From Candidatus Rifleibacterium amylolyticum (GTDB lineage Bacteria; Muiribacteriota; Ozemobacteria; Ozemobacterales; Ozemobacteraceae): a DNA stretch of 64,000 nucleotides. The stretch spans positions 211,321 to 275,320 of the forward strand of contig JAACJG010000004.1 in NCBI GenBank assembly GCA_009917695.1, in the 5' to 3' direction. Position 1 is the stretch's first letter. Every line of letters begins with the position of its first letter. Positions 22,734 to 57,140 of the stretch are shown piece by piece. Made by a program: the position numbers and the translations under genes. The notes under the pieces are model-generated. The model was given only the letters and a program-made list of their open reading frames with translations, did no database searches and had not been told where the DNA came from.

Positions 22734-22806
22734 GGGCGCTTAGCTCAGTTGGAAGAGCTCCTGGTTTACACCCAGGTGGTCGGCGGTTCGAGCCCGTCAG
22801 CGCCCA
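22734..22806 (+). tRNA. tRNA-Val (anticodon TAC)
   Basis: Cloverleaf GGGCGCT/AGCGCCC acceptor, anticodon loop TTTACAC, T-loop GGTTCGAGC; the 3' end encodes CC. Confidence 0.85.
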
Positions 22807-22816
22807 CCGAAAGCAT

Positions 22817-22891
<75 letters not shown>

Positions 22892-22905
22892 CTCTCATTT
22901 TAAAA

Positions 22906-22978
<73 letters not shown>

Positions 22979-22990
22979 TTTGTTTTGTCT

Positions 22991-23062
<72 letters not shown>

Positions 23063-23127
23063 TTGTGAAGGGTATTAACCTTCCCACATCTGGCCTGCCA
23101 GTTGCTGGTATGCCTTATAGATATTCT

Positions 23128-23202
<75 letters not shown>

Positions 23203-23207
23203 TTCAG

Positions 23208-23772: not shown

Positions 23773-23974
23773 GTTTCCTCCAATTATGCCAGATGCATTA
23801 CATCGCCGCCTGCGTCTCAAGAGGGGGTCTTGCGTTCAGGCATGTCTATGTCACACGGATACTTGTATGCAGGTCTATATTACCTGATTTTTCAAAAAAG
23901 TCACCCTCATGGCTGCAAAATATAGCTGTCTCTGCCGATATATCTAAAAAAAGGTGTTTGTAGCAGGAGGCATT

Positions 23975-25831
23975 ATGTCCGCATTATTGACTATTGGGAC
24001 GACTGGCAGAAAATCAGGTCAGCCGCTATCTCAGCGCGCGCGTCGTCTGGTCGGCAGATTCCTTCTCTGTACCGCATTCTCAGCTGTGGCGGGAATTCCG
24101 GCCGAAGCCGGCGCTCTTGACTGGCTTATTCAGAGCTCTTCTGCCCGTAATTCAAGAAAAACTGAGTCCGTCGGGCAAGGTGGTTCTCAGGCAGAATCCG
24201 TGCAGCTCCAGATGCCTGCACAAGAGCAGCAGCAACTTACTGGCGGCAATCTCGACACATTCACATTCGCATCAAGCCACTGGAAACAGTCGCGCGAACG
24301 TCTGGAAAAGGCCTGCCGGGCTATCAGCAGCCGCTATAACGACAACTCTGCCCGTGATATTCTACAGAAACTCTTTGTCATTGCCACTCAGATCTTTCGC
24401 GAGAATATTCGCAATACCGCAATGGCTGTCGGCGAAGTCAGAGATGTCAATCTCAAGGTGCGGCAGGGTCTGGTGGCTGTTAACCGGATTGTTACCGCCC
24501 CTGGCCAGGAGACGCTCGACAACCTCGATCGGGCTATCGATGAAGTGCTGTCGGCCAATGTTAACCAGCTGCTCTATGTCAAAAAATATCTGGTTGCCTC
24601 AGAAAGAACAGCGCAACTTGCCCGCACATCTTATGAGACTCTTGAGCTGATTCCCTCTCTTTCCTTGCCGGCGCTCGACATGATGGTGTTGATGGCGAAG
24701 CAGCTTATGCGTGTTTCGCAGTCGAACAGTGAGGCTTTCAAGGGATTGTTGCTTAACGTTCAGAGCAGCAGCGAGCAGGTAAGTGCCGGTCTCGACAATG
24801 TTAAGAAGATCGTGCGTGAAACGTTGCGCTTCTCAGATCATTTTGCGGTCAAACAGTTTCCGCTGATCAACCTGCCGACGCCCTCACGCGAAAAAATCTA
24901 CGTGCAGCTCAACACACTTGATAACTTTGTAAGAGGAGTTGACAACACCGTTCAGATCGGCGATTCACAGGTGCGCAACGCCTCTCAGCAGTTTACTCAC
25001 ATGATTACCGGATTTATTGCGAAGGCGGCCGAGAGTCTCAAATATCAAAGCCCTGATAATCAGGAAAAAGCTTTGCCGCAGATTTCGAACTACGCACGTA
25101 ACCAGGTCAGCGGTCTGTTTTTGCGGGCAAAAGAAGATCTGACTTCAATGCGCAGTGAAATGGCCAAAGCTGCCCGTCCCGGAACTGGCGCGATGCCGCC
25201 GGCAGTTAAGGTCGAAAGTGGCGAAGAAATGGCTTCCCGGCGTGCCAGATCAGCAGCCGGCGAGAAATTGCCGCTGTTTTTGCTCGGCGGAAAAAATGCT
25301 GCAGAGACAGATGTAGCCGCCGCTCCAGCTGAAGAACGGGTTTTAACGGCGCGAATTCCTGATCAGAGTTCGTTTTTGCCACTCAAGACGCAAACAGCGG
25401 CAGAAACTCAGATAGCTCGTCCTGACATCAATTTCGCTGCACCTCCTGCCGGAGTCACCGAACAGGTGCTTTATGATGAAAGCGCAAGTTTTGGCAGCAG
25501 CTCAGATCTGATGCAGTCTGAAGTTAATATTCTGAGTAATGAACTTGGCGCTGATTTCTTTTTCGGCTCCGGCGAAAACATCTCACAGAGCAGTTTGCAG
25601 GCGCGCAACGATGATTCGGTCGGGTTCGAAAGCGAAGAAGAAGGCGACGAAGAAGCAGAAGACAACGGCTTTGCCGAAAGCGATATGCAGATCAGCTACG
25701 ACAATCTCAATTCCAGCGGCGAACCCGAAATCGAACTGCTCAAATTCGATTCGGCCTCTTACGGCTCATCCTCTGATGACCTGATTCCCATGATGCGTTT
25801 CGAAGGTGAAACACTCAATTTTGAGGACTGA
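23975..25831 (+). CDS. Hypothetical large secreted protein with a coiled-coil body and an acidic C-terminal tail
   Basis: The ATG at 23975 is 4 nt after AGGAGG. A signal-like N-terminus is present and the C-terminus is Asp/Glu/Ser-rich. Confidence 0.5.
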   Translation: MSALLTIGTTGRKSGQPLSQRARRLVGRFLLCTAFSAVAGIPAEAGALDWLIQSSSARNSRKTESVGQGGSQAESVQLQMPAQEQQQLTGGNLDTFTFASSHWKQSRERLEKACRAISSRYNDNSARDILQKLFVIATQIFRENIRNTAMAVGEVRDVNLKVRQGLVAVNRIVTAPGQETLDNLDRAIDEVLSANVNQLLYVKKYLVASERTAQLARTSYETLELIPSLSLPALDMMVLMAKQLMRVSQSNSEAFKGLLLNVQSSSEQVSAGLDNVKKIVRETLRFSDHFAVKQFPLINLPTPSREKIYVQLNTLDNFVRGVDNTVQIGDSQVRNASQQFTHMITGFIAKAAESLKYQSPDNQEKALPQISNYARNQVSGLFLRAKEDLTSMRSEMAKAARPGTGAMPPAVKVESGEEMASRRARSAAGEKLPLFLLGGKNAAETDVAAAPAEERVLTARIPDQSSFLPLKTQTAAETQIARPDINFAAPPAGVTEQVLYDESASFGSSSDLMQSEVNILSNELGADFFFGSGENISQSSLQARNDDSVGFESEEEGDEEAEDNGFAESDMQISYDNLNSSGEPEIELLKFDSASYGSSSDDLIPMMRFEGETLNFED

Positions 25832-25895: not shown

Positions 25896-26882
25896 ATGAG
25901 TTTCCCTGTGCATCGTCCGCGGCGTCTGCGTATAGACAGTCGCCTGCGCGGTATGATCCGAGATGTCAGCCTGTCCCCCGCTAACCTGATTTATCCGCTT
26001 TTTGTCGTCGATCAAATTGCTGAACCCCACGAAATTTCGGCGATGCCAGGTCAGAAACACTGGCCGGTTGCGCTCGTGCATGAGCCTGTTGCTGAGGCCA
26101 TGCGCAAGGGTGTCATCGCATTCATTCTTTTTGGCGTTCCATCTGCCAAAGATGCTCACGGCAGTCAGGCTTACGACGCAGACAGCGTTGTCTGTCGCGC
26201 TCTGCGCCACATTCGCCAGCACTGCCCGCAGGCGTATCTGATAACCGACGTCTGCCTGTGTGCATACACCGACCACGGCCACTGTGGTATGCTCAAAGAC
26301 GACGGCAGTATTGATAACGACAGTTCGATCGATCTGATTGCACGCATGGCTCTGGCACATGCGCAGGCTGGCGCTGATATGGTGGCGCCTTCCGATATGA
26401 TGGATGGCCGCATCGGCGCGATAAGAAATCTGCTCGATACAAATGGCCTGGTTGATCTGCCGATAATGTCTTATTCGGCCAAGTATGCCTCGGCTTTTTA
26501 CGGGCCCTTCCGCGAGGCGGCCGGCTCAGCGCCGGGAAAAGGCGATCGCAGCGGCTATCAGATGGACTTTCGCTTCGCGCGCGATGCCATGGTCGAGTTT
26601 GAGCTTGACCTCGAAGAGGGCGCAGATATTCTGATGGTCAAGCCTGGCCTGGCTTATCTCGATATGGTCAAGCTGGCGCGCGACAATTTTCCCTGCCCGA
26701 TCGCGGTTTACCAGGTTTCTGGTGAATATTCGATGATCAAGGCCGCCGCCGAAAAGGGCTGGGTTAACGAACGCGCAGTTGCGCTCGAAAGCCTTTATGC
26801 CATGCGTCGCGCCGGGGCTGACCTTATTTTGACTTATTTTGCGCCGCAGGTTGCTGAATGGCTGCAGGAGGCGAAAAGCTGA
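25896..26882 (+). CDS. hemB: Porphobilinogen synthase (delta-aminolevulinic acid dehydratase)
   Basis: The full-length HemB signature is present, including the Cys-rich Zn site (DVCLCAYTDHGHCG) and active-site lysines (MVKPG..YQVSGEY). Confidence 0.9.
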   Translation: MSFPVHRPRRLRIDSRLRGMIRDVSLSPANLIYPLFVVDQIAEPHEISAMPGQKHWPVALVHEPVAEAMRKGVIAFILFGVPSAKDAHGSQAYDADSVVCRALRHIRQHCPQAYLITDVCLCAYTDHGHCGMLKDDGSIDNDSSIDLIARMALAHAQAGADMVAPSDMMDGRIGAIRNLLDTNGLVDLPIMSYSAKYASAFYGPFREAAGSAPGKGDRSGYQMDFRFARDAMVEFELDLEEGADILMVKPGLAYLDMVKLARDNFPCPIAVYQVSGEYSMIKAAAEKGWVNERAVALESLYAMRRAGADLILTYFAPQVAEWLQEAKS

Positions 26883-27934
26883 TGCCGCATCCGCATGCTA
26901 CGGCACAACAAGATTCTCAACTTCTTCGAGTTCTCGCCTGGGAAAGCACACGCGCCTGCACTCTGGCCTGCCCGCATTGTCGTGCCTCGGCCGTCGATAT
27001 GCGCGATCCAGATGAACTGACTACCGCTGAGGCCATGCAGATGCTTGATTCAGCGGCTGAGCTCGGCAAATCGATTATTATTCTCAGTGGTGGAGAGCCG
27101 CTGCTGCGCGAAGATCTTGAACAGATTGCCGAACATGCGGTTAAACTTGGTCATCGCCCGGTCGTTTCTTGTAATGACGGGCGGCTGTTGACCGACGAGC
27201 GTCTGACTACTCTGGCTGCTGCCGGTATCAGACATTTCAGCTTCAGCATGCACTCAGAGCTTGAGACCGATCACGACCATTTTGTCCGGGTTGAAGGCGC
27301 TTATCGAGAGGCTTTGCAGGCTTTCGCGCGAATAAAAAAGCATGGCCTGTCATTTCAGATCAATACAACGGTTCTGCCGGGTAACCATGAGCGGTTGGCC
27401 AAAATCAAAGACTGGGTCGTTTCACTTGGTGCTGCCAGCTGGCATCTGTTTTTCATTGTGCCGATGGGTCGTGCTGCTGCTGCCGGTTCAGAGGTCGCTC
27501 TCAGGCAGACGCAGATCGACGCGGTGCTCAGATACGTTGCGGCAGAATCTGACGACTGGCCGATTCCGGTAAAGGTGACCTGCGCTCCGCAATATGCGCA
27601 GATACGTGCCAGCATGGGCAAAGATCCCGGCAGCCGCGGGCGCAGCTGTATGGCCGGCAGCGGTTTTGTCTTCGTCAGCTGGTGTGGTGAAGTAAAGCCG
27701 TGCGGCTATTTCGATCTCGTGGTCGGCAATATTCGCAAAACACCTCTGAGCCAGATATATCGCGAAAGTGCTGAGCTGCGTGATATGCGCACTCCGGAAA
27801 AATTCAGCGGCATCTGCGGGCGCTGCAAGTTCAATCGAGTCTGTGGTGGTTGTCGGGCGCGCGCATACGCTGTTAATGGGAGTTTTCTCGCGTCTGACCC
27901 AAATTGCAACTATTCTGCTGGTCAAGAAGGTTAA
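26882..27934 (+). CDS. Radical SAM/SPASM protein of the AhbC/AhbD/NirJ family (alternative heme biosynthesis)
   Basis: A CTLACPHCRAS (CxxxCxxC) motif with a C-terminal SPASM-like cluster site (CGRCKFNRVCGGCRARAY). The start overlaps the hemB stop by 1 nt (TGATG). It is flanked by hemB and AsnC-like decarboxylase genes. Confidence 0.75.
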   Translation: MPHPHATAQQDSQLLRVLAWESTRACTLACPHCRASAVDMRDPDELTTAEAMQMLDSAAELGKSIIILSGGEPLLREDLEQIAEHAVKLGHRPVVSCNDGRLLTDERLTTLAAAGIRHFSFSMHSELETDHDHFVRVEGAYREALQAFARIKKHGLSFQINTTVLPGNHERLAKIKDWVVSLGAASWHLFFIVPMGRAAAAGSEVALRQTQIDAVLRYVAAESDDWPIPVKVTCAPQYAQIRASMGKDPGSRGRSCMAGSGFVFVSWCGEVKPCGYFDLVVGNIRKTPLSQIYRESAELRDMRTPEKFSGICGRCKFNRVCGGCRARAYAVNGSFLASDPNCNYSAGQEG

Positions 27935-28010
27935 ACCGCGGTATCATTGGTACACTTTCAGGCCTGCAGATATTACTGACAAATAACAGATCAAGCAAAG
28001 GATACACCTG

Positions 28011-28454
28011 ATGGACGAAAAAGATCACGAAATAATTCAGATGCTTCAGGGCAGTTTCCCGCTCGAATCTGAGCCATACCGTGTAATTGGTGATAAACTC
28101 TGGCTCGACGAGGTATCGGTCATATCGAGAATTGCACGGATGATTCAAGGTGGAGCCATACGTTATCTCGGGCCGTTTTTCGACAGTCGTAAGCTCGGTT
28201 ACCAGGGCTGTCTGGCCGCAATACAGGTTGCTCCCGAGCAGGTCGACAAGGTTGCTGCTGTTCTCGATCAGTTCTCAGAGATAACCCATAATTACCTGCG
28301 TGACGGCAAACCCAACATGTGGTTTACCGTGATTGCGCCGTCTCTGGAACGCCGCGCTGAAATTTTTTCGGCGATCAAAGAAGCCGCCGGTATTGATGAA
28401 ATCATGGTTTTTCCGTCAAAGAAATTTTTTAAAGTAAAAGTGGACCTCGACTAG
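28011..28454 (+). CDS. Siroheme decarboxylase subunit (AhbA/AhbB, NirD/L/G/H family, Lrp/AsnC-like)
   Basis: DHEIIQMLQGSFPLESEPYRVIGDKLWLDEVSVISRIARMIQGGAIRYLGPFFD is the classic NirDL/AhbAB N-terminal HTH followed by the AsnC-type C-terminal fold. Confidence 0.75.
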   Translation: MDEKDHEIIQMLQGSFPLESEPYRVIGDKLWLDEVSVISRIARMIQGGAIRYLGPFFDSRKLGYQGCLAAIQVAPEQVDKVAAVLDQFSEITHNYLRDGKPNMWFTVIAPSLERRAEIFSAIKEAAGIDEIMVFPSKKFFKVKVDLD

Positions 28455-28463
28455 GAGCTGCTC

Positions 28464-28940
28464 ATGGATAACAAAACCCGACAGATCCTGTGTGAACTTC
28501 AGGATGGCTTTAAACTGGAAACTCGCCCGTTCAAGCGCATTGCCAACGAGGTTGGCTGTAGTGAAGAAGAAGTCCTCGAAATTATCAAGCGAAGTCGCGA
28601 GGAAGGGCTGATTCGCCGTATTGGAGCAGCAGTGCGCCCGGGTCATCTCGGCCATTCCGCGAATGCTCTGGTTGTCTGGCAGGTGGCCGAAGATCGCGTC
28701 GATGAAGTCGGCACCGCGCTGGCCGAAATGCGTGAGATTTCGCATTGCTACGAGCGTGAATGTCCGCCAAACTGGCCTTATAATCTCTTCACCATGATTC
28801 ATGCACGCAGTGAAGAAGAGCTTGAGCAGATCATCGCCGACATTTTTCAGCGCTTTTCGCTTGGGCAATACAAGGTTTTGCGCACTGTCAAAGAGCTCAA
28901 GAAAACCTCGATGCGCTATTTCGAGGAAAACGCAAAATGA
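28464..28940 (+). CDS. Siroheme decarboxylase subunit (second AhbA/AhbB paralog)
   Basis: TRQILCELQDGFKLETRPFKRIANEVGCSEEEVLEIIKRSREEGLIRRIGAAV is the same family as the previous gene; the two presumably form a heterodimer. Confidence 0.75.
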   Translation: MDNKTRQILCELQDGFKLETRPFKRIANEVGCSEEEVLEIIKRSREEGLIRRIGAAVRPGHLGHSANALVVWQVAEDRVDEVGTALAEMREISHCYERECPPNWPYNLFTMIHARSEEELEQIIADIFQRFSLGQYKVLRTVKELKKTSMRYFEENAK

Positions 28941-30223
28941 ATGCGGAAGCATTGAAGGCTGCCGAAAAAGTTTTTCCCGGTGGCGTGAACAGCCCGGTTC
29001 GTGCTTTCAAATCGGTTGGTGGCAGCCCACTTTTTATCAAAAGAGCCTCCGGCAGCAGAATCTTTGATGTCGAGGGGCGCGAATATCTTGATTATGTTGG
29101 CTCGTGGGGGCCAATGATTCTCGGCCATGCCGACCCTGATGTTATCGCTGCGGTTACCCGTACCGCCGCCTCGGGTTTGAGTTTCGGTGCACCTACTGAA
29201 GCTGAGACTGAACTGGCTCATCTGGTGCGCGAAGCTTTTCCGGTTATCGAGAAAATGCGCCTGGTCAACTCAGGTACCGAAGCCACCATGTCAGCAGTTC
29301 GTCTGGCACGAGGCTTTACCGGCAGGCCACTTATCGTGAAATTTGACGGCGCCTACCACGGACACGCTGATTCGTTACTGGTTTCAGCCGGTTCTGGCGT
29401 AGCTACTCTCGCCATACCTGGTTGCCCCGGCATTCCCGAGAGTATCGCTGCCTGCACTCTTGTTTTGCCGTTCAATAATATTGCAGCTTTACAGGCCTGC
29501 TTCGAAAAGCATGCCGGTCAGATCGCCGGCGTCATTGTTGAACCGGTCTGTGGCAATATTGGTGTAGTAAACCCTGCTGACGGTTATCTCGCGGCTTTGC
29601 GCAAGCTGTGCAGCGAGCACGGCGCTCTGTTGATTTTTGACGAAGTCATGACCGGCTTCAGAAGCTGTTTCGGCGGTGTCAGCAATCTCACCGAAGTTTG
29701 CCCCGACCTGACCTGTCTCGGCAAGATCGTTGGCGGCGGTATGCCACTGGCCATCTACGGAGGCCGCGCTGAAATAATGGCGCATATCGCTCCCGATGGC
29801 CCGGTCTATCAGGCCGGAACTCTCGCTGGCAACCCGGTTGCTGTAGCTGCCGGTATTGCCACTCTCAAAAAGATCAAGTCACAGCCGCATTTTTACGAAC
29901 ATCTGCTGGCTCGCGCTGGCAAACTCGAGGCCGGCATCGCTGCCGCCGCCGCAACTGCCGGTTTCAAAGCCGTCTCAAACCGTTTCGGCTCGATGTTTAC
30001 CATGTTTTTTACCGACCAGCCGGTTGTGGATTACGCGACAGCAAAAACTTCCAATACTGCTCTGTTCGCCCGCTGGTTTCGTGGCATGCTCGCCGAAGGC
30101 GTCTATCTCGCGCCCTCACAGTTCGAGGCCGCTTTCCTCTCGGCAGCCCACAGCGACGCCGATATCCACCATACCATAGTAGCCGCCACCCACGTCTTCA
30201 AGCAGCTCGCCGCCGGGAAGTAA
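28937..30223 (+). CDS. hemL: Glutamate-1-semialdehyde 2,1-aminomutase
   Basis: Class-III aminotransferase with the HemL signature (YHGHADSLLV...FDEVMTGFR; the lysine lies in LTCLGKIVGGGMP). An ATGA overlap joins it to the upstream gene. Confidence 0.9.
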   Translation: MNAEALKAAEKVFPGGVNSPVRAFKSVGGSPLFIKRASGSRIFDVEGREYLDYVGSWGPMILGHADPDVIAAVTRTAASGLSFGAPTEAETELAHLVREAFPVIEKMRLVNSGTEATMSAVRLARGFTGRPLIVKFDGAYHGHADSLLVSAGSGVATLAIPGCPGIPESIAACTLVLPFNNIAALQACFEKHAGQIAGVIVEPVCGNIGVVNPADGYLAALRKLCSEHGALLIFDEVMTGFRSCFGGVSNLTEVCPDLTCLGKIVGGGMPLAIYGGRAEIMAHIAPDGPVYQAGTLAGNPVAVAAGIATLKKIKSQPHFYEHLLARAGKLEAGIAAAAATAGFKAVSNRFGSMFTMFFTDQPVVDYATAKTSNTALFARWFRGMLAEGVYLAPSQFEAAFLSAAHSDADIHHTIVAATHVFKQLAAGK

Positions 30224-30312: not shown

Positions 30313-31164
30313 TCATTTGGGTTTGATTTTGACCGGGTTGGTTCGAATTGCGTAGCGCAATGGCTTGGTCGCATCAGTAGGAACATATTCAACTTCGGTT
30401 CTGATCAAATTGAAGCCGGAGTTTTCACGGTCGTATTTTACTTCACGATATTTGTGAAGCACGTTCAGTTCGTCTTTGAGAGCAAGTGCATGAACACCGA
30501 GTTTTACGGTAGTTCCAGCCTGCACTTCACAGATGAATACAGTATCAGTAGCCTGGGTTTCCGACCATGCCGGGTGGGGCTGCTTAAATGTCATGTTAAG
30601 TACTGGAATTGGATCGGTAGCAACCTCGTTGTTTTCATAGATTATGAAATCATTGGCGCTGATATCACCTTGAATATAAACTGATTTGTTGAAATGAAAA
30701 TACAACAGGTCAGTTTCGCTTATCGTTCTGTCATTGTCGAGGTCTTCCCATTCGATCTTGTTCAGTGCAAGATCTTTGACATAGTATTCGCGTATGTCAT
30801 CACTTTTTGATGAGCTCGGACCTTCGCTGTAGACAAAGCATGCATAGGGATCGAGTTTATAGTTCTTGCCCCAGGGATCAGTCGGAATAAAGGTGAGGTA
30901 ACGGCCCATCAGCCCGTTGAAGTCTTTTTCTCCGAGTGTTGGAAGAGGGTTTGCCGTGTCTGTGCCAATAATGCCGAGGTATGGCAGGTCTTCCTGAGAA
31001 TTGTGCAATACGACAGCCTGTTTAAGGGCGTCGAGGTCCTGCAACGCTTTGGAGCGCTTGCTGTCTTTGACATAGTCAGAGTAGTATGGGGTTGCCACAC
31101 CGACGAGAATGGCGATGATGACCACCACCACCAGAAGTTCAATGAGCGAGAAGCCGCGTTTCAT
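30313..31164 (-). CDS. Large prepilin-type N-terminal cleavage/methylation domain protein (GspG-like pseudopilin paralog with a C-terminal extension)
   Basis: MKRGFSLIELLVVVVIIAILVGVATPYY has the prepilin peptidase site G|F and E at +5. A GspG-like DPWGKNY motif is present. The ATG at 31164 is 8 nt after AAGGAG; the ORF-track start at 31173 is a GTG inside the RBS. Confidence 0.65.
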   Translation of the reverse strand: MKRGFSLIELLVVVVIIAILVGVATPYYSDYVKDSKRSKALQDLDALKQAVVLHNSQEDLPYLGIIGTDTANPLPTLGEKDFNGLMGRYLTFIPTDPWGKNYKLDPYACFVYSEGPSSSKSDDIREYYVKDLALNKIEWEDLDNDRTISETDLLYFHFNKSVYIQGDISANDFIIYENNEVATDPIPVLNMTFKQPHPAWSETQATDTVFICEVQAGTTVKLGVHALALKDELNVLHKYREVKYDRENSGFNLIRTEVEYVPTDATKPLRYAIRTNPVKIKPK

Positions 31165-31282
31165 AATCAGCACTCCTTCGAGAGGTATGCAGGAATAGAA
31201 AATTCCAATTCAGACCACTTATCGACAATATAAAGACAAAATATTATCTAAAATATCAGCTAAATCAAGGCATTTGTTATTA

Positions 31283-31364: not shown

Positions 31365-33044
31365 TTACTTCCCGCGTAACTGGTCGCGCTTGGCGCTGGC
31401 TTCGTTATCAGTATAGTAACCGTAGCGCTTGAGTTTGGTCACGCATTTGAGTGCTTCGCTCGTGTTCCCGCGCTCTTCGTAAAAATCCATCAGCTCTTCG
31501 ATGAGCTTGCGGTCTTTCTTATATTCCTTGCGGGTCAGAAGAGCCATGATCGCCACTTCACGCAGGCGGTCGTTTTCGCCGTTATAAGCAAGGTTCATGA
31601 GCTCTTCATCGCTGACACTCGAATATTTGGGGTCGATTTCTTTCTTTGTGCCGAACAGAGCCAGGTTGTCGCGGGCAAATTTGTCTTTGAGCTCTTTTTC
31701 GGTCATTTCTTTGCCATAGGCAGTGCCCGGATTAACCTTGTAATATTTTCTGAATACGGCCAGCGCCTGATTATAGTAACCTCGCTCTTCATAGAAGCGC
31801 CGCAGACCGTCGAGTGCTTCGGCATCCTCCTTGTTGCGATCTATCAGTTCGTAGTAAGTTGCTTCGATGTCAGCGTCGGTGTTGCCTGATTCCATGAGCT
31901 TCATCTCAAGCTTGCGTGATTCGAGGCGTTTCTTGGTCTCTTCGATTTCATCGAGTTCCATGCGTGCCTGATCGCCAAATTTGGGGTCGCGCCGCAGCAT
32001 GTTGAGAAAGTTTTCGGCATTGGCAAAATCTTCACCTTTGAGATAGATTTCAGCAGAACGCATAATGCCTTCAGCGAAATCCTTGTTCATGTTGTAGGCC
32101 TGCAGGTAAGACTTGATCGCTTCGTCATAGCGGCCCATGTCTTCATAGAGTCGGCCAAGCTCAAAATAGCCAGTTGCCGGGTCGGCGTTCTTGCGAATCT
32201 CCTTTTTGTATTCGGCAATTGCTTCTTCGACTTTGCCACTCTTTTCTAGATTACGCGCGAGGTCATAACCTATGAGCTCTTTGATTTCCGGGTCGCGGCG
32301 ACCGAGTTTGCGTGCAGTTTCATAATGTTCCGCGGCTTTATCGGCGTTTTGTACGCTTTCGTAAGCTCTGGCCAGCAGCCAGTGCGTTTCGGCATGTTTC
32401 TGGTCAAAGAGCAGGGCCTGCTCAAGAATCTCGATTGCTTCGCGGGCAGAATCGAGATCAATGAGCACAGCGCCGAGACCGCGTAACACGTCGGGATTGT
32501 CGGGCTGTGCCTGCCTGGCCTGTGTCAACATTTCTCGGGCATCTTTAAGGTTTCCCTGCTCGAGCTGATACATACCGAGGCGTGACAGTGCTTTGCCGTT
32601 GCCGGGTTCGAGCGCAAGTGCGCTTTCGTAATGCTCTATCGCCTCGTCAGATTTATTGCGGGCATCGAGCAGCTCACCCATGCGCACATGAATGTCAGCT
32701 GACTTGGGGAAGCCGAGCAGCGCAGTTTCGAAATGGCGCAGAGCCTGGGTGGGCGAGCCTTCCTGCGAGATCATGATGCCAAGATAATAGTGCGCCATAA
32801 ACTCCTCTGGCGATTTACGCACTATTGCCCGCAGCGACTTGATTACTTCAGCTTTTTCCTTTTTATTGCCAATCTGAAAATCGCGCCAGGCTTTGTCGTA
32901 AAAAGCTTCTGATATCTGCACCGGTTCAGGCGCCAGCGGGATCTTTTTGCGGCGCACAGCGGCAGATAGATCGGAGGCTGCAAAAATGCAGCAGAGCGCA
33001 AAGCTCAGTATCAGCAGTTCCGACAGTCTGGTTCTGGTCTTCAT
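31365..33044 (-). CDS. Secreted TPR repeat protein
   Basis: A signal peptide (MKTRTRLSELLILSFALCCIFAASDLSAA) precedes twelve or more TPR units (AHYYLGIMISQEG..., AETHWLLARAYES..., and others). Confidence 0.7.
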   Translation of the reverse strand: MKTRTRLSELLILSFALCCIFAASDLSAAVRRKKIPLAPEPVQISEAFYDKAWRDFQIGNKKEKAEVIKSLRAIVRKSPEEFMAHYYLGIMISQEGSPTQALRHFETALLGFPKSADIHVRMGELLDARNKSDEAIEHYESALALEPGNGKALSRLGMYQLEQGNLKDAREMLTQARQAQPDNPDVLRGLGAVLIDLDSAREAIEILEQALLFDQKHAETHWLLARAYESVQNADKAAEHYETARKLGRRDPEIKELIGYDLARNLEKSGKVEEAIAEYKKEIRKNADPATGYFELGRLYEDMGRYDEAIKSYLQAYNMNKDFAEGIMRSAEIYLKGEDFANAENFLNMLRRDPKFGDQARMELDEIEETKKRLESRKLEMKLMESGNTDADIEATYYELIDRNKEDAEALDGLRRFYEERGYYNQALAVFRKYYKVNPGTAYGKEMTEKELKDKFARDNLALFGTKKEIDPKYSSVSDEELMNLAYNGENDRLREVAIMALLTRKEYKKDRKLIEELMDFYEERGNTSEALKCVTKLKRYGYYTDNEASAKRDQLRGK

Positions 33045-33170: not shown

Positions 33171-33623
33171 TTACAGACTGGCCGGACCCTGCAGCAATAC
33201 TCTGGCGCCTGAAATCACTGAATAGAGAGCGACAATCAGGCTGAAATAGAAGAGGTAAAAGTGAAAACGTCTGATGTTTGCCTGAGCTTTCGCTTTCTTC
33301 GGGTTCTTGATCGACTTGCCGACGAACATGTTAGCCAGCAGTATGCCAAGAAGAATGGCGCCGGCAAAGCCGTGCCCGTAGGTGCGCTGAAAGATTTCCT
33401 TTACGCCCAGAAACTGAACCAGGCTGAAGATGCCGCCGAGAAGACCGACGAAGATCAGGCCGGTGATCAGCTTGCTCAGCTTCAGGTGCTGCTGAAGAAT
33501 TAGATCGTGCTGATCTGCTTCGGGTGATTTGGGGTTGATGGCCAGTGCCTGTTTGCCGAGGCGATGAATGTGGATCACGGCGGCAAGCAGAGCCAGCATG
33601 AAGATTGGGTGCAAATACTGCAT
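33171..33623 (-). CDS. Small integral membrane protein (4 TM), hypothetical
   Basis: An AGGAG RBS 7 nt upstream; four hydrophobic helices; no family recognised. Confidence 0.5.
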   Translation of the reverse strand: MQYLHPIFMLALLAAVIHIHRLGKQALAINPKSPEADQHDLILQQHLKLSKLITGLIFVGLLGGIFSLVQFLGVKEIFQRTYGHGFAGAILLGILLANMFVGKSIKNPKKAKAQANIRRFHFYLFYFSLIVALYSVISGARVLLQGPASL

Positions 33624-33637
33624 AGCTGAACTCCTGC

Positions 33638-35686
33638 TTAAAGTTTGAATTTTCCAATATCGAAGTCGTCGAGATCGAATGGGTCTTTGGCCGGTTTTTT
33701 GCCGCCCTTGGGCTTCTCTTCGACCGGGCTGTCGAGATCGATAATGTTGTCGAGGTTGAACGGGTTATCATCAACTGGCGCGGCAGGTTTCCCTGCTGCC
33801 GGCTTTTTGCCGCCTGCCGCCGGTTTGGCTGGCGCTGCCGGTGCGGCCGGCTGGTCGTCACTCGGGAATACCTCAAGAACGTCGAGATCAAGGTCAAGAC
33901 TGGCAAACGGGTCTTTGCCGCCTTCTCCGCCAGGACTGCCGGTGCCGAGACCAAGATCCGCCTCAGAGAACAGCGCTGCAAATGGATCTTTGCTTTCTTT
34001 GCCGGTCGAAGTTTTCGGCTTCATCGGCGGCAGCGGAGTATCGTCGTCTTCGAAGCCGGTAGCTTCATCAGCCGGTTTCATCGGTGGCAACGGCGTGTCG
34101 TCAAGGCTGGCAAAGGGGTCGGGTTCTTTGGCCGGCGCTGGCTTTGCCGGGGCGGGTCTGGGCGCTGGCGCCGGTTTGGCTGGCTGCGTCGGTTTCGCTT
34201 CCGGCTTCATTGGTGGCAGCAGGTCGGCCAGGTCGTCGGCAAATTCATCGGCAGCCGGCGCGGCGGCTGGCTGTGGAGGCTGCTTCGGCGCGGCCGGCGC
34301 TGGTTTCATCGGCGGCAGCAGGTCGGAAAGGTCATCGAGTGGCAACTCCGGCTCTGGCGAGGCTTCTGCCGGCGCCGAAAAGTTGTCGAGTGAATCGAGA
34401 TTGATGTCAGGCACTCCCGCGTCAGCTGTCGTAGATGACTGATTGGCAGCATTCTGAGCAAGTGTTTCGTCTGATGTCTCTTTTCCTGACTGGCTGAGAT
34501 TATCGATCAACGAGCCGAACAGATCGTCGCCGAGACCCTCTTGCTTCATGAAATCAGGCGTTGGCACGGCCGGCGATCCTGATTCAGCTGGAGTGGGCGC
34601 AGTTGCGGTCACTGCTGGCGCATCCAGGTCAAGATTGAGATTGTCTAAATTCATGCTCTCATCGACAGCTTCAGGGGGGGGCGGTGGAGCAGCCGGCCTG
34701 GGCGCAGGAGCAGGTTTAGCCGGAGCCGGTTTTGGCGGCGCGGCAGCCGGATGAACCGGCCTGGCAGGCGTAATCGCCGGCTTTTCAGCAGGTTTTGCCG
34801 CCGGGAAAGCCGGAGAACTGTCATCTTCATTCTGTGTCTGGACAGGTCGTTCTGAAACTGCTGGCTTAGCCATGTTTTCAGCTGGTCTGGCCGGAGCTGC
34901 CGGCATGGGAGGTGCAGCGGGGGCAGGCTTTGTCGTTGGCGCCGCCGGGCTGGACGGCATTGCCGTCTTTGTCGTTGCTGGCTGTGGAACGACTGGGGCT
35001 ACCGGTGTGACCGGCCTGGCTGGAGTTGCTGGCGCGGCCGGAATTGCCGGAGAAATTGGCGCCGGAGTAGCAGGAATTGGTTGAACTTGGCCGGTCGGCG
35101 GAAACGCCGGGGCTTGCGGCGCTGAGATTACTGGTGGCGCAGCGGCAACAGGTGCCGGTATTGGAGCCGGTTCTTTCTTTAAACCAATATTGGCAGGCGC
35201 GGAAGGCGTGGCCATTGGTTTTCGTTTTATAATAGGTTTGACTGGCGGAATCGGGCGGCGCGGGCGGCCTGAGCCTTTTGCCGATGCGGCCAGCGGTTTC
35301 CCGCAACAGGGGCAGAATCTGATGACCATGTCGCATTCATCGCAATAGAGGCCATCGCCGCTGGCGATGTTGGAGGCTGATGTGCCTGAAGCTGATGCCT
35401 GCGGCTGATTAGATGATTCCCAGGTGCCGCTTTCGCCTTTGCTCCAGTTGTCAAGTTCAAAGACGAGGTCTTTGACTCCGGCAACCTTTCTGATACTGGA
35501 TTCAATGAATTTGAGCTCAATAGCGATTTCGTCGACGGTTTTTTCGATGCCGACAAAGGCAAGTTCACCCTGCAGGGTGACGACCCCGGCATTTACCGGA
35601 AATTTTATTTTGCCGAGATCGACTCGCCGCCCAGCCAGTTCACGTCTGACGGCAGCTCCGATCCCAAGGTCAGTGGCCTCCTTCAA
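33638..35686 (-). CDS. BON-domain plus zinc-ribbon protein with an approximately 550-aa Pro/Ala-rich intrinsically disordered tail carrying repeated LPPMKP and DPF(A/D)xL motifs
   Basis: A TTG start 6 nt after GGAGG. The N-terminal BON-like fold (VNAGVVTLQGELAFVGIEKTVDEIAIELKFIESSIRKVAGVKDLVFEL) is followed by CDECDMVIRFCPCCGKPL and then low-complexity sequence with four LPPMKP and four DPF motifs. There is no signal peptide and no TM segment. Confidence 0.6.
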   Translation of the reverse strand: MKEATDLGIGAAVRRELAGRRVDLGKIKFPVNAGVVTLQGELAFVGIEKTVDEIAIELKFIESSIRKVAGVKDLVFELDNWSKGESGTWESSNQPQASASGTSASNIASGDGLYCDECDMVIRFCPCCGKPLAASAKGSGRPRRPIPPVKPIIKRKPMATPSAPANIGLKKEPAPIPAPVAAAPPVISAPQAPAFPPTGQVQPIPATPAPISPAIPAAPATPARPVTPVAPVVPQPATTKTAMPSSPAAPTTKPAPAAPPMPAAPARPAENMAKPAVSERPVQTQNEDDSSPAFPAAKPAEKPAITPARPVHPAAAPPKPAPAKPAPAPRPAAPPPPPEAVDESMNLDNLNLDLDAPAVTATAPTPAESGSPAVPTPDFMKQEGLGDDLFGSLIDNLSQSGKETSDETLAQNAANQSSTTADAGVPDINLDSLDNFSAPAEASPEPELPLDDLSDLLPPMKPAPAAPKQPPQPAAAPAADEFADDLADLLPPMKPEAKPTQPAKPAPAPRPAPAKPAPAKEPDPFASLDDTPLPPMKPADEATGFEDDDTPLPPMKPKTSTGKESKDPFAALFSEADLGLGTGSPGGEGGKDPFASLDLDLDVLEVFPSDDQPAAPAAPAKPAAGGKKPAAGKPAAPVDDNPFNLDNIIDLDSPVEEKPKGGKKPAKDPFDLDDFDIGKFKL

Positions 35687-35811
35687 TTTTGGCCTCCAGT
35701 TCTCAAGTCAGTTGAATATAGAGTCGCACGGCAAATTCTAGATTTGCACAATTCATTTTAAGAATCGGCAAAGTCGTGAAAATTTCTTAATCTTATCTGC
35801 ACATAAAAGAA

Positions 35812-36729
35812 TTATAGCGCAAAGGCTGCGCTAAATTCAGCAACATTCTTAAAGACAGTGGCGCGTTGTGCGGGGTCGGCAAGGTTGAAAAGCGGCGGGC
35901 CAGGCCGGCGTCTCAGCCATGTTTCCTGGCGCTTGGCATATTGCCGGGTATGAATTACGATTGCTTCGCGGGTTGCCGTTAGGTCAGCCTTGCCGTCGAG
36001 CAGATCGAACCATTCACTGTAACCAATAGAATTGAGGCCGGGCGCCTGTCTGCCGTATTTGTCGATGAGTCCGCGTACCTCGTTTTCCAGCCCAGCTGCA
36101 ATCATTTCGTCAACCCGCCGCCCAATTGCTTTGTGAAGTTCATCGCGCGGGCGAGTTACGACTACTGGCATAAATAGCGCTTCTGGCAGCGGTGATACGC
36201 GTTTGTTCTCAGCAAGTGGCCGCCCGGTGTTCGTTACAATCTCTATTGCCCGCAGAACGCGCCGTGGATTATTGACATCTATCTGGCTGGAAGCAGCAGG
36301 GTCGAGTCTTTGCAGCTGATCGAGCATAGCGGCGAGGCCTTTTGTCTGCAATTCCTGCTGCAGGCGCTGTGACAGCTCAATGTCATTGCCGGCAGCACCG
36401 AGGCCTTCGGCGAGCGCATCATAATAAAAGCCAGTGCCGCCGACCAGCAGTGGAATTTTTGCGCGTTGCCATATCTGTCTGATGGTCTTCGCAGCCGATT
36501 CGGCATATTCGGCGGCACTGAACGACCGGTCTGGCGCTATTATGCTGAAGAGATGATGCGGCGCCTGCGCCATCTCAGACTGAGTCGGGTGAGCAGTTCC
36601 GATCAGCATTTCGCTGTAAATCTGCCGCGAATCACAGTTGACTATTTCACAGCCGTGCCTGGCGGCAATTTCAAGCGCCAGACCGGTCTTGCCTGACGCC
36701 GTCGGCCCCAGCACCGCCATAACGGGCAT
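35812..36729 (-). CDS. miaA: tRNA dimethylallyltransferase
   Basis: MPVMAVLGPTASGKTGLALEIAARHGCEIVNCDSRQIYSEMLIGTAHPT is the canonical MiaA P-loop and N-terminus. Confidence 0.85.
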   Translation of the reverse strand: MPVMAVLGPTASGKTGLALEIAARHGCEIVNCDSRQIYSEMLIGTAHPTQSEMAQAPHHLFSIIAPDRSFSAAEYAESAAKTIRQIWQRAKIPLLVGGTGFYYDALAEGLGAAGNDIELSQRLQQELQTKGLAAMLDQLQRLDPAASSQIDVNNPRRVLRAIEIVTNTGRPLAENKRVSPLPEALFMPVVVTRPRDELHKAIGRRVDEMIAAGLENEVRGLIDKYGRQAPGLNSIGYSEWFDLLDGKADLTATREAIVIHTRQYAKRQETWLRRRPGPPLFNLADPAQRATVFKNVAEFSAAFAL

Positions 36730-40496: not shown

Positions 40497-40928
40497 TCAG
40501 GGTTCCTTCCAGGTCCAGCTGATCAGGCGATCGAATTCTGCCTCGGGATCTGGTTGTTCTATGCAGACTTCGAGGTGCGGCATTTTCTGGAGTTCGGCGA
40601 CGCGTTCGGCCCATTCCACCAGGCAGGGATTACCTGTCTGTAATATCTCGAAAAGACCGATATCGATAACCTCTTCGAAGCAGTTGACGCGGTAGAGATC
40701 GAGGTGAAAGAGTGATCTGCCGCCGCTGCGGTATTCGTTCATCAGCGTATAAGAAGGGCTCGAGACATGGCCGTCGATGTTGAGTCCGCGGGCAAATCCT
40801 CGGGCAAACAGCGTCTTGCCGGCACCAAGTCCGCCGTGCAGAAGAACCAGCGCTTTCGGATACTGTTGGGCCAGCTGCCCGGCGATCTCGAGAGTTTGTT
40901 CAGGTGATTGGCTGCGTATCGGTTCCAT
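40497..40928 (-). CDS. tsaE: tRNA threonylcarbamoyladenosine biosynthesis ATPase TsaE
   Basis: A P-loop (LHGGLGAGKTLFARG) plus SPSYTLMNEY...LFHLDLYR, the TsaE/YjeE signature. Confidence 0.8.
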   Translation of the reverse strand: MEPIRSQSPEQTLEIAGQLAQQYPKALVLLHGGLGAGKTLFARGFARGLNIDGHVSSPSYTLMNEYRSGGRSLFHLDLYRVNCFEEVIDIGLFEILQTGNPCLVEWAERVAELQKMPHLEVCIEQPDPEAEFDRLISWTWKEP

Positions 40929-43228
40929 CAGTCTCTCAATTCAGTTGCCAGAACTATGTCGCGGTTGATGCAGGTAAGGCAGTTGAGCAGTTTGTCGCGC
41001 AGACTCTGATCTTTAACCGCATCGCGAATCTGCCTGATCAGATCGATAACCTGACGAAAGGCCCTGATCAGATCTCCTTCAGGGATGTCGGCCATCGCCA
41101 TCATATCTTCAAATGCACACCCCTGGCTCCAGGCCAGCATAAGATTGCAGATTCTCGTTTCCAGGGGCTTGATAAAAGCATGTTGTCGTGCCAGCGAATT
41201 GACGAAGCCGCGTGCACTCTTCAGCTTTTCCGGCAGTTTGGCTACCGGGCGTGGTGTTTCGTTGTTGCTGGCGCGCCGCCGGTGTTCGTAAACCAGTGAC
41301 AGGCAGATCGCGTTGATTTCGTGCTCGTTGCATTCATGAAAATAGCCGGCAAAATAGAGTTCGGTGACAGCAATCTCTTCGGTATGAATGCGGCTGGCGA
41401 GTTCTCCGCGCGCGAGCAGGCCCTTTTCATCAATATAGCCAAGTTGGCGCAACAGTTCGAGTTTGCGCTCATACAATGGTAGTTGCAGCTCTTCCTGCTC
41501 TTCAAGCAGTCCGCGCCAGTAATTTAGCTTTTTGCGCAGGCGTGCAGCCTGATTATAACGCGAAACACATTTGTTCTTGCTGCGGCAGCGGCCACAGATA
41601 AAATTTCTTTCCTGTTCCAGCATTTCCTGGTGCTGGGCCGAAAATTGCTTTTCAATATCTTCCTGATAGGTGCGGTTACGCTTTCCACGCATACCGTAAC
41701 GAATCTGGTCGAGCTGGCGGTGCATGGTGTCAACCTTTTCTCGCATCTTTTTCTGGAACACCATGAATTCATCAAAGTCGTTTTTCTTTTCGGGGCAGCG
41801 CGGCATGACCTGCTCGATCTCATAGCGAATCTTGGCGACTTTCTCAGCCAGTTCCGGCAGCATTTTGTTTGCCTGAAACTGTGCAAAGTTGCGTTTGAGA
41901 ATCATGCGAACTTCGTCGGATTTATGGCCAGAATACAGGTTCAGAACACTGTTGAATGACAGATCGAACTGGCTCAGCAGCGGCTCGATGTCGCCATAAA
42001 CGAGAGTCTGCAGTTCCTCCAGCGACAGGTCGCGTGGCAGGTGCGGAACAACCACCCAGCCGGTTTTGTCGATACCACGCCGGCCGGCGCGCCCTGAAAT
42101 CTGAGTGAATTCAAGCGACTTCATCGGGCGGAAGGTGCGTCCGTCATATTTTTTGAGAGCATCGTAAGCTACGCTGCGGGCCGGCATGTTAACGCCGACG
42201 GCGAAAGTTTCGGTTACGAAAAGCACTCTGAGTGTGCGTTCGGCGAACAGTATCTCGACGAGTTCCTTGAGCTGCGGAAGCAGGCCGGCATGATGTCTGC
42301 CAACGCCGCGTATCAGTTCTTCGCGCAGATTCTGTGCTGTTTCGAGGTTATGCAGCTGGTATTTTTCGATGCAGTTATCAACCATTTCCTCGATGCGTGC
42401 TTTTTCTTCAGGTGAGGTGAAGTCGAGCTTCTGGGCGGTATCACGTGCCAGTTTGTCGGCAAGCGCCCGTGAAAATACGAAATAGAGCAGGGGCAGGCGA
42501 TCCTGACTGCGCAGCTGTCTGATGATATCGAAGTGTCTGAAATCGCCTTCCTTTTTGGCGCGGCGGTCGCGTGGACCCTCGGTCATCGCTGATTTGCCGC
42601 GCAGCTTGCTGCGCAGATCCTTGAAAGTCAGTAATTGTTTGTTGTAGTTGAAAAGAAACGACAGCGGTACTGCGCGCTGGTTATGGCTGATAACCTTGAC
42701 CTGGTGGTCGATGACCGATTCGATCCAGCGCGCCAGTTCGTCGCAGTTCGGAATAGTCGCCGAAAGCGCAAGAAACCGCACGGTCTTCGGCGAAAAGATA
42801 ATCGATTCTTCCCAGACGGTGCCGCGTTCGATGTCACCGAGATAGTGAATCTCGTCGAAGATTACGTATGATACATCGGCAATGGCCTCGGGGTCTTCGA
42901 TTGCCATGTTGCGGTAGACTTCGGTGGTGACGATCAAAGCCTGGGCGTCTCGATTGATGACGACGTCGCCGGTCAGAATGCCGACCTTGTCGCCGTAGAG
43001 CCGCGAAAAATCACGATATTTCTGGTTCGACAGCGCCTTGATCGGCGACGTGTAAATGATGCGCTGATCGGTTTTGAGAACTTTTTCAATGAGATACTCG
43101 GCTACGAGAGTCTTGCCTGACCCGGTCGGGGCCGAAAGAACCAGCGAATGACCGTTTTCGATCTCGGTGATTGACTGAATCTGAAATTCATCGAGAACGT
43201 AGTCGCGGTATTTTACATTTAATTCCAT
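40928..43228 (-). CDS. Ski2/HelY-like DEAD/DEAH-box helicase
   Basis: Motif I (APTGSGKT), DExH (FDEIHY), SAT (LSATIPN), then a winged-helix and DSHCT-like C-terminal region. A 1-nt overlap with the tsaE start. Confidence 0.8.
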   Translation of the reverse strand: MELNVKYRDYVLDEFQIQSITEIENGHSLVLSAPTGSGKTLVAEYLIEKVLKTDQRIIYTSPIKALSNQKYRDFSRLYGDKVGILTGDVVINRDAQALIVTTEVYRNMAIEDPEAIADVSYVIFDEIHYLGDIERGTVWEESIIFSPKTVRFLALSATIPNCDELARWIESVIDHQVKVISHNQRAVPLSFLFNYNKQLLTFKDLRSKLRGKSAMTEGPRDRRAKKEGDFRHFDIIRQLRSQDRLPLLYFVFSRALADKLARDTAQKLDFTSPEEKARIEEMVDNCIEKYQLHNLETAQNLREELIRGVGRHHAGLLPQLKELVEILFAERTLRVLFVTETFAVGVNMPARSVAYDALKKYDGRTFRPMKSLEFTQISGRAGRRGIDKTGWVVVPHLPRDLSLEELQTLVYGDIEPLLSQFDLSFNSVLNLYSGHKSDEVRMILKRNFAQFQANKMLPELAEKVAKIRYEIEQVMPRCPEKKNDFDEFMVFQKKMREKVDTMHRQLDQIRYGMRGKRNRTYQEDIEKQFSAQHQEMLEQERNFICGRCRSKNKCVSRYNQAARLRKKLNYWRGLLEEQEELQLPLYERKLELLRQLGYIDEKGLLARGELASRIHTEEIAVTELYFAGYFHECNEHEINAICLSLVYEHRRRASNNETPRPVAKLPEKLKSARGFVNSLARQHAFIKPLETRICNLMLAWSQGCAFEDMMAMADIPEGDLIRAFRQVIDLIRQIRDAVKDQSLRDKLLNCLTCINRDIVLATELRD

Positions 43229-49623: not shown

Positions 49624-49817
49624 TTCGCTCTTCCTTTATCAAACTACATTAATTATAACATCTGCCATAAGCAAGATCAATTCAGTAAAACGGTGCAGTC
49701 TGCAAAAATCACGCAGAAATATTTTCCCCAAATCGTTTTTCAGCTGATTAACATATGGAGTGTCAATGGCAACACCGCTTGCCCGCTCCAGAATGCCGAA
49801 TTTTGAAGGAAGAATAT

Positions 49818-54675: not shown

Positions 54676-54733
54676 TATTCAGTCCTAAAAACATTTCTGA
54701 CGGTATTGCTACCGTCAGAAATGTTTGCTAAGT

Positions 54734-56391: not shown

Positions 56392-56406
56392 ACTTTCTCC
56401 TTGAGG

Positions 56407-57126: not shown

Positions 57127-57140
57127 AACATACCTCTCTA

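Follow-up and report, generated by a model that had tools for sequence, protein, structure and literature searches.

A complete coding sequence at positions 33638 to 35686

The window analyzed here is a 64,000-nucleotide stretch of contig JAACJG010000004.1 of Candidatus Rifleibacterium amylolyticum. Its minus strand carries, at 33638..35686, a complete coding sequence for a protein of 682 amino acids, which is identical (100%) to hypothetical protein GQF41_1654 of Candidatus Rifleibacterium amylolyticum. The list of open reading frames (ORFs), the orthologues and the codon-position pattern all support the gene exactly where the initial annotation of this DNA had placed it. In the product, a folded N-terminal part is followed by a long tail in which short, strongly conserved peptides stand in a fixed order, and it is this combination that we describe and interpret below.

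Translation begins at a TTG codon (35686-35684) that lies 6 nt downstream of a Shine-Dalgarno sequence, GGAGG (35693..35697, minus strand); this start is right, since the orthologues begin at the same M[KR]EATDL. Substitutions relative to the three closest orthologues fell mostly on the third codon position (105, 89 and 273 on positions 1, 2 and 3, respectively, for the closest of them), which confirms the reading frame, and no frameshift is present, in agreement with the initial annotation. Against the same three orthologues, the ratio of nonsynonymous to synonymous substitution rates (dN/dS) was 0.18-0.19 in the head, 0-0.03 in the zinc ribbon, 0.17-0.22 in the spacer, 0.09-0.12 between the motif islands and 0.014-0.023 in the islands themselves, values that rule out both a pseudogene and a low-complexity artefact. 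We conclude that Riflebacteria, an uncultured phylum, have here a genuine gene that is strongly conserved. No 19-residue window anywhere in the 682 residues reaches the hydrophobicity threshold; the protein thus lacks a transmembrane helix and, in line with the initial annotation, a signal peptide.

Antisense open frames of 150-570 codons cross the gene in almost every orthologue, whatever the local conservation, and their translations are G/A/S-rich low-complexity sequence. They had initially been set aside as artefacts, and we agree that they are most likely by-products of codon usage. Such frames (33645-34442, plus strand, in the window, and others in the orthologues) are a trap for gene callers on Pro/Ala/Asp-rich genes.

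The head is a divergent BON domain

Residues 2-92 (35411..35683, minus strand) comprise a divergent BON-like domain and then a conserved NW..x..GxW beta-hairpin, as judged from AlphaFold2 (AF2) models, Foldseek, profile searches and alignment. The AF2 models show the topology helix-strand-strand-helix-strand (helix 6-19, strand 35-40, helix 51-66, strand 73-78), with a predicted local distance difference test score (pLDDT) of 90-96 for these elements. Modelled alone, the head reached a pLDDT of about 90 over residues 10-90, and in the full-length model it reached 96. Conservation was mapped by projecting a 57-sequence alignment onto the 682-residue protein, and R14, R15, R21, G40 and W89 of the head proved to be invariant.

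Pfam is silent on this domain: the protein has no match even at E ≤ 1 and does not reach the gathering score of BON (PF04972), and the BON matches found in 6 of 30 orthologue heads (best E 0.017) all fall below the cutoff. Foldseek searches of the PDB with the head gave no match at E ≤ 0.001. Its top matches, at a probability of 0.99-1.0, include BonA, OsmY, DolP and the CdsD ring-building domains; E-values for the first three were weak (0.015-0.05), and TM-scores were 0.36-0.41 when normalized to the 137-residue query. A profile built from 37 diverse head domains matched OsmY (8rjx) at E = 7.1e-6, spanning both OsmY BON domains, DolP (7a2d) at 0.004 and BonA (6v4v) at 0.052. The initial call of a BON-like fold followed by a zinc ribbon at the N-terminus is thus supported by the family profile and the fold comparison.

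To collect relatives of the head, we searched 1.84 billion representatives of 50%-identity protein clusters with a profile; at E ≤ 0.001, 280 of them matched. These are the orthologues, zinc-ribbon proteins of about 290 residues, a few fusions to HEAT repeats and many domain-only proteins of 90-160 residues; every one of them begins directly with the domain (residue 2-6) and is unnamed. G40 and W89 are invariant throughout this branch, and its conserved hairpin motif, NW...GxW, is extra to the BON fold. We conclude from these data that the head belongs to a divergent branch of the BON superfamily that is signal-less and not yet catalogued.

Zinc ribbon and polybasic stretch

A Ser/Ala-rich hinge separates the head from residues 110-134 (35285..35359, minus strand), GDGLYCDECDMVIRFCPCCGKPLAA, which bear the pattern CxxC-x6-CPCCG and were delimited from alignment, sub-threshold Pfam matches and AF2. 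In the anatomy alignment the segment reads GDGLYCDECDMVIRFCPCCGKPL, with every cysteine invariant: two CxxC knuckles, C115-x2-C118 and C125-x2-C128, are followed by an equally invariant G129, and C127 is an extra, fifth cysteine where the initial annotation had counted four. Zn_ribbon_NUD was matched in 17 of 30 orthologues (best E 0.0032) and Zn_Ribbon_1 in 6 of 30, all below the cutoffs, and relatives from Wallbacteria reach the DZR model of Pfam. The segment has a pLDDT of 77-81 in the full-length model. By its signature, this is a zinc ribbon that is predicted to bind zinc.

It runs directly into a conserved polybasic, proline-rich stretch, RPRRPIPPVKPIIKRKP (residues 135-160, 35207..35284, minus strand), recognized by conservation and charge. 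The 40 residues after the zinc ribbon carry a median net charge of +10 in the orthologues, the rest of the tail is net acidic throughout, and this block pattern of +10 and then about -30 is conserved.

A tail predicted to be disordered, with conserved motif islands

The tail of some 550 residues that the initial annotation had described as disordered (here residues 135-682) is predicted to be so, its pLDDT, which is a proxy for disorder only, being mostly below 50. In the full-length AF2 model, 388 of the 682 residues score below 50, and the tail has no secondary structure except a helix at 570-577; small rises (55-68) occur at the islands, and the C-terminal tip has the highest pLDDT in the tail (58-68). 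The first and largest part is a variable spacer, predicted to be disordered and Pro/Ala-rich here (residues 161-445, 34352..35206, minus strand), in which neither sequence nor composition is conserved and almost no alignment column is maintained. Orthologue tails range from 443 to 803 residues in length and from 9 to 25% in proline content, some being rich in Ser/Thr/Asn/Gln, and still the motifs persist.

The motifs follow the spacer on the same strand. Four copies of LPPMKP are present, as initially reported (starting at residues 457, 490, 533 and 552). Copy 1 lies at residues 457-462 (34301..34318) in the context DDLSDLLPPMKP; copy 2 at 490-495 (34202..34219), context DDLADLLPPMKP, falls in conservation island 487-494; copy 3 occupies 533-538 (34073..34090) in the context LDDTPLPPMKP; and copy 4 is held by the conservation island EDDDTPLPPMKPK (residues 546-558, 34013..34051), whose P553 and P554 are invariant. 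DPF occurs four times (residues 523, 567, 592 and 668) and NPF once (641). The count of four DPF motifs given by the initial annotation therefore stands, but the form DPF(A/D)xL that it assigned to them fits strictly in only three motifs, the others being DPFDLD and NPFNLD. The first, EPDPFASLDD (residues 521-530, 34097..34126), is lineage-variable. The remaining ones belong to islands: KDPFAALFSE (566-575, 33962..33991), which overlaps the only tail helix in the AF2 model; KDPFASLDLDLDVLEVFP (591-608, 33863..33916), with alternating acidic and hydrophobic residues; VDDNPFNLDNIIDLDSPV (638-655, 33722..33775); and the C-terminal island AKDPFDLDDFDIGKFKL-COOH (666-682, 33641..33691), in which D674 and D676 are invariant and which closes with DPFDLDDFDIGKFKL, the ending already given in the initial annotation. 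The order of the six islands (487-494, 546-558, 566-575, 591-608, 638-655 and 666-682) is always fixed in the orthologues. Motifs 2 and 3 have changed in one group of homologues, P0039-P0049, to DDIFDSLF and DGLGNLDLD.

These motif counts are far beyond chance, since in 20000 shuffles of the tail that preserved its composition neither five [DN]PF nor a non-trivial 6-mer occurring at least three times ever came up. No DNA repeat underlies the motifs: Tandem Repeats Finder returned nothing but a 13-bp array unrelated to them, and synonymous codons differ among the four copies of LPPMKP and among the five of [DN]PF. We conclude that the repetition is maintained at the peptide level and does not stem from recent DNA duplication. 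Fixed motif order, together with purifying selection stronger than that on the folded head, is an accepted signature of docking sites in hub or scaffold proteins, and in this general sense the data support the scaffold or hub reading of the initial annotation.

Several other motif assignments were considered and rejected. An AT-hook was discarded because its glycine is not conserved, a C-terminal membrane-targeting helix because the peptide is too acidic, an outer-membrane beta-signal and a type I secretion signal because the patterns do not fit, a beta-clamp-binding motif because there is no glutamine, and a strict PxxPxK SH3 ligand because the first proline is missing in half of the copies.

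Orthologues and relatives of the head

We found 53 full-length homologues of 490-760 residues, all unnamed or labelled 'hypothetical', and wherever the source is named it is Riflebacteria or Ozemobacteraceae. At the species level (one genome per species) the gene was recovered at 41 loci, which belong to Riflebacteria except for a few evidently mislabelled bins, and in each genome it was found only at the sampled locus. The initial annotation had tied its reading to homologues keeping the motifs, and this check came out in its favour: the zinc ribbon and at least one LPP[MLIVAK][KR] motif are retained in 53/53 homologues, and 50/53 keep an F-[KR]-[LIV] C-terminus.

The protein belongs to no significant family in Pfam, NCBIfam, PADLOC or PHROGs, and the literature searched contained no paper on a BON plus zinc-ribbon protein or on the present one. 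Unknown gene families are reported to be denser in Riflebacteria, along with UBP17, than in any other phylum, and 26 of those in Riflebacteria are listed as putatively defining the phylum (PMC10849945). Those parts of the FESNov study supplements that were examined do not contain the protein sequence.

Beyond the phylum, homologous heads (E 1e-12 to 1e-23) occur in proteins of Candidatus Wallbacteria (P0073, P0074, P0081, P0088 and P0194), which are about 280-330 residues long and labelled hypothetical or 'zinc ribbon domain-containing'. They follow the same order, from BON-like head through zinc ribbon(s) and an acidic disordered stretch to an acidic-hydrophobic C-terminus, but have one to four zinc ribbons, and a conserved basic helix, LxEKxKxLLExxKE, replaces the LPPMKP and DPF arrays. 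Their C-termini read [IF][DN]FDD[LF]-COOH or variants such as LDDVLKTLD. The shared plan is therefore older than Riflebacteria, and the very long spacer with the LPPxK and DPF arrays is a Riflebacteria-specific elaboration. The Wallbacteria relatives reside in unrelated housekeeping operons.

Some features of relatives of the head and of their surroundings were recorded in passing. The 281-residue relative P0073 sits within an ftsH-folE-folP-[relative]-folK operon (locus L052, 2165-7354), and its end overlaps the start of folK. At locus L010 there are two tandem ORFs of 120 amino acids (2114-2476 and 2723-3085), the first of which encodes the domain-only head relative P0078; a gene for an SBP_bac_1 solute-binding protein is located near them and another near P0072 (L008), a relative with three zinc ribbons. 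The distant head relatives P0099, P0104 and P0116, also from Candidatus Wallbacteria, are fused to HEAT repeats, and the window itself encodes a HAMP plus HEAT-repeat protein at 14953-17511 (plus strand).

Genomic neighbourhood

Upstream of the gene, on the same strand, a terminator-like hairpin (35815..35833) lies at the end of miaA, and a promoter-like site, TTTTCA-16-TAAAAT (35755..35782), recognized by its match to the consensus alone, is found between miaA and the gene. The miaA hairpin suggests that the gene may start its own transcription unit. On the other side, a gene for a DUF4079 protein with four transmembrane helices (33171..33623, minus strand) starts 14 nt past the stop codon and has its own AGGAG. 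At 32 of the 41 species loci enough downstream sequence was available to be informative, and since DUF4079 directly follows in 22 of these 32, the two genes are probably co-transcribed.

Further downstream on the minus strand are a syntenic tetratricopeptide repeat (TPR) protein of 559 amino acids (31365..33044) and a syntenic prepilin-type protein of 286 amino acids with a GspG-like N-terminus (30313..31173). A TPR gene of 560 residues was present within about 3 kb in 24 of the species loci, and in 5 it occurred without DUF4079. Orthologues of the TPR protein carry n-h-AxA signal peptides, so the protein is probably periplasmic, and we rejected it as a receptor of the C-terminal peptide on this ground. 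As envelope proteins, the TPR protein and the pseudopilin are unlikely to make direct contact with a cytoplasmic tail. Five of the 32 loci (L022, L025, L026, L029 and L034) have neither the DUF4079 nor the TPR gene, and both are also missing from L005, a separately fetched locus with homologue P0040.

The conserved block as a whole reads mutL-miaA, the present gene, DUF4079, TPR and pseudopilin, followed by haem-synthesis genes, and it is broken in several clades. We rejected synteny as a clue to function, because the block mixes unrelated functions, and kept only the 14-nt coupling to DUF4079.

The DUF4079 protein has histidines in or beside its four helices (H5, H18, H20, H84 and H121), which, beside haem-synthesis genes, hints at a haem-binding b-type cytochrome. 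The haem-related cluster (25896-30223, plus strand) encodes hemB (ALAD), a radical SAM/SPASM enzyme and a class III aminotransferase, and orthologous loci add two small AsnC/NirDL-like proteins; it resembles an alternative haem or haem d1 pathway and is syntenic with the present locus in many Riflebacteria. On the miaA side, a DEAD-box helicase with a DSHCT (Ski2/Mtr4/HelY-type) C-terminal domain (40928-43228, minus strand) heads the conserved run tsaE-tsaB-tsaD-mutL-miaA.

Other features of the window

The region 53980-63953 (minus strand) holds a type II secretion or type IV pilus-like cluster. Two prepilin-type proteins are encoded there, at 53980-54675 and at 54734-55564, together with a platform protein of the GspF family (62337-63500) and a secretin whose N-terminal region, STN plus FecR_C, is unusual (59816-61744); an ORF at 58930-59727 had no Pfam match. 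Six large ORFs of 359-1170 amino acids (1055-2407, 2413-3492, 4659-6116, 6146-9658, 10252-11616 and 23954-25831) have no Pfam match at E ≤ 1e-6 (1e-5 for 23954-25831), which fits the reported richness of the phylum in unknown families. Two nearby genes of the PD-(D/E)XK (PDDEXK_2) transposase family are present at 49755-50846 and 52091-53032 (plus strand), and a tRNA cluster, Val-Asp-Phe-Cys-Asp, with tRNA-Asp(GTC) twice, at 22734-23203 (plus strand).

Function and alternative explanations

We tentatively propose, at somewhat less than an even chance, that the protein, restricted to one lineage and most likely cytoplasmic, is a tether or docking hub with three functional parts. Its head, that is, the BON domain with the tryptophan hairpin, the zinc ribbon and the polybasic stretch, would be an anchor that fixes the protein to a surface or complex, and the cytoplasmic membrane, on its inner side, would be the likeliest anchoring site, with anionic lipids and/or the probably co-transcribed DUF4079 protein as the point of contact. 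We favour the membrane because the single BON domain of DolP binds anionic phospholipid and thereby localizes that protein (PMC7806268), because the stretch after the zinc ribbon carries a charge of +10 and because the adjacent DUF4079 gene encodes a membrane protein. The several hundred disordered residues of the spacer may serve as a flexible line that gives reach. The acidic C-terminal module would then present short docking peptides in fixed order, each binding a partner surface: acidic-x-[LF]-P-P-[MLK]-[KR] in one to five copies, [KD]-[DN]-P-F-x-x-L in three to five copies, the alternating LDLDLDVLEVF stretch and the free C-terminus DDFD[IL]xxFK[LIVF]. Repetition of the motifs could provide avidity for an oligomeric partner or collect several clients.

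A number of observations weigh against this proposal. According to the DolP study, BON domains are not generalist lipid binders (PMC7806268), and the present head has neither an amphipathic helix nor a transmembrane segment. In the AF2 model of the whole protein, no motif makes a confident contact. Used alone as a query, the tail retrieved nothing from PDB sequences and only orthologue fragments from 5.8 billion proteins, with no other family carrying the motifs, and a network of proteins sharing them is hence not in evidence. Five of the 32 informative loci, and L005 as well, lack the DUF4079, TPR and pseudopilin genes downstream while all motifs are still there, and gene order is weak functional evidence in any case, since mutL-miaA and the haem genes are equally syntenic. 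The argument for a docking hub is wholly computational, and no partner was found.

The conserved charge blocks could also be explained if the protein associated with itself, which we regard as unlikely. Its acidic-aromatic tip or tail would bind the basic helix 1 of the BON domain and/or the polybasic stretch of a second molecule, giving head-to-tail chains or a condensate, as charge-block proteins do. Such pairing would agree with the invariance or near-invariance of R14, R15, R20, R21, K26 and K28 in the head and of D673, D674, D676, F675 and F680 in the tip, with the succession of positive and negative blocks described above and with the tip having the pLDDT maximum of the tail. A mild trend in the same direction is seen among the domain-only relatives, in which the domain is basic (median net charge +5) and the short tails are acidic in 49% and basic in 15%. 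However, AF2 yields no confident structure for the tip, and the basic residues of the head are kept even in relatives that have no tail. The strict conservation of P, F and L across five motifs, moreover, points to specific sites and not to bulk electrostatics.

Binding of DNA or RNA by the zinc ribbon and the polybasic stretch, with the linker and acidic tip recruiting genome-maintenance proteins in the manner of SSB, would make the protein a nucleoid-associated hub, and this we consider quite unlikely. The conserved +10 stretch would suit it, the layout of folded head, disordered linker and acidic C-terminus is that of SSB, the Wallbacteria relatives end in [IF][DN]FDD[LF]-COOH, and mutL lies two genes upstream in most species. 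Yet the head resembles BON domains and not the OB fold, the Pro-Phe that ends the SSB tip is missing here, the library scans matched no family that binds nucleic acids, and the mutL-miaA synteny is probably mere conserved gene order.

A role as a tether in cell division or polarity, the example offered by the initial annotation, with the C-terminal F-D-I-x-x-F-K-L imitating the FtsZ peptide D-I-P-x-F-L-R or binding a cytoskeletal or polar partner, appears decidedly improbable to us. The layout of head, long variable linker and C-terminal peptide is shared with FtsZ, as is the D-I-x-x-F spacing, but the proline that is conserved in the FtsZ peptide has no counterpart here, and neither the window proteins scanned nor the syntenic loci include a gene for division or the cytoskeleton. 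DolP and BonA, both BON proteins, do localize to the division site (PMC7806268, PMC8406262); they are, however, periplasmic lipoproteins, unlike the protein studied here. Least credible of all is an exported envelope protein that would span the periplasm with a proline-rich region like TonB/TolA, alongside the secreted TPR protein and the pseudopilin: the periplasm houses most of the characterized BON proteins (PMC11747388), neighbouring genes encode envelope proteins and the spacer resembles the Pro/Ala/Lys-rich tracts of TonB/TolA, but this is very unlikely because there is no export signal (no signal peptide, lipobox or transmembrane helix, and a BON domain from residue 2-6 in every relative), and a five-cysteine zinc ribbon suits the reducing cytoplasm, while the spacer is not proline-rich in several orthologues.

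The docking hub that we favour can be extended, as a long shot, to a new class of cytoplasmic adaptor in Riflebacteria and Wallbacteria, in which a membrane-seated BON/zinc-ribbon head and arrays of DPF/NPF-like, LPPxK and L-D-L-D motifs would gather dedicated machinery, for instance to remodel membranes, divide the cell or assemble the envelope, by a multivalent logic like that of Eps15 and epsin. If this were true, the motifs would define a new bacterial peptide-receptor system, with its receptors still to be discovered. For the docking hub itself, six islands held more tightly than the folded domain imply that each should correspond to a partner that matters to the cell. The island peptides are ready-made baits, which could reveal a lineage-specific cellular machine without culture.

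Comparison with known systems

In SSB, an OB fold is followed by a disordered linker and an acidic tip, DFDDDIPF, which is the docking site. The present protein may be likened to it, as its N-terminal module is folded, its disordered linker is free in composition and its acidic-hydrophobic C-terminus is strictly conserved. It differs in having a head other than an OB fold, a tail that is five to ten times longer and five motif classes instead of one; its end, DDFDIGKFKL, is not the SSB tip D-D-D-[IL]-P-F-COOH, and the likeness is one of analogy only. A similar analogy may be drawn with FtsZ, whose variable-length disordered linker also ends in a short conserved peptide with D-[IL]-x-x-F spacing; the present protein lacks the tubulin-like GTPase domain and the proline of that peptide and has extra internal motifs.

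In RomR, a folded N-terminal domain is followed by a proline-rich linker and then by an acidic C-terminus. By analogy, the conserved islands in long, charge-patterned disorder may be compared with the polar hubs RomR, PopZ and HubP/FimV and with the C-terminal scaffold of RNase E, which recruit several partners; there is no sequence relationship to any of these, and their head domains are different. TonB and TolA have an N-terminal membrane anchor, for which the present protein offers no hydrophobic window of 19 residues. Repeated DPF/NPF motifs and acidic L-[DE]-L-[DE] stretches in long disordered tails are also found, along with clathrin boxes, in the eukaryotic endocytic adaptors Eps15, epsin and AP180, whereas the bacterial consensus, [KD][DN]PFxxL, is longer. 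Among the window proteins scanned against Pfam there was no AP2 appendage, EH or clathrin-terminal domain, a receptor in Riflebacteria at large not having been sought, and the likeness to the eukaryotic motifs is probably convergent or coincidental, a resemblance only. We treat the parallels with class II PDZ ligands, the tip of SSB, the FtsZ peptide and the eukaryotic DPF/NPF arrays as leads only.

The protein may also be compared with the BON proteins OsmY, DolP/YraP, BonA and Kbp, with which the head shares the helix-strand-strand-helix-strand fold and, for OsmY and DolP, similarity at the profile level. In contrast to OsmY, DolP and BonA, of which BonA oligomerizes (PMC8406262), the present protein has no Sec signal peptide or lipobox and its domain starts at residue 2. 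Kbp likewise has no signal sequence, so a signal peptide is not obligatory for BON proteins (PMC7806268). Relative to all of them, the head adds the NW...GxW hairpin and is fused to a zinc ribbon and a 550-residue motif tail; clusters 1-7 of the architecture table of the DolP study include no combination of BON and zinc ribbon (PMC7806268). The BON-like fold, the zinc ribbon, the disordered motif-bearing tail and the principle of an anchored hub are each already known. The combination of these parts, the motif set and the signal-less BON branch are previously undescribed, and this branch broadens the settings of a domain that has been studied mainly in the periplasm.

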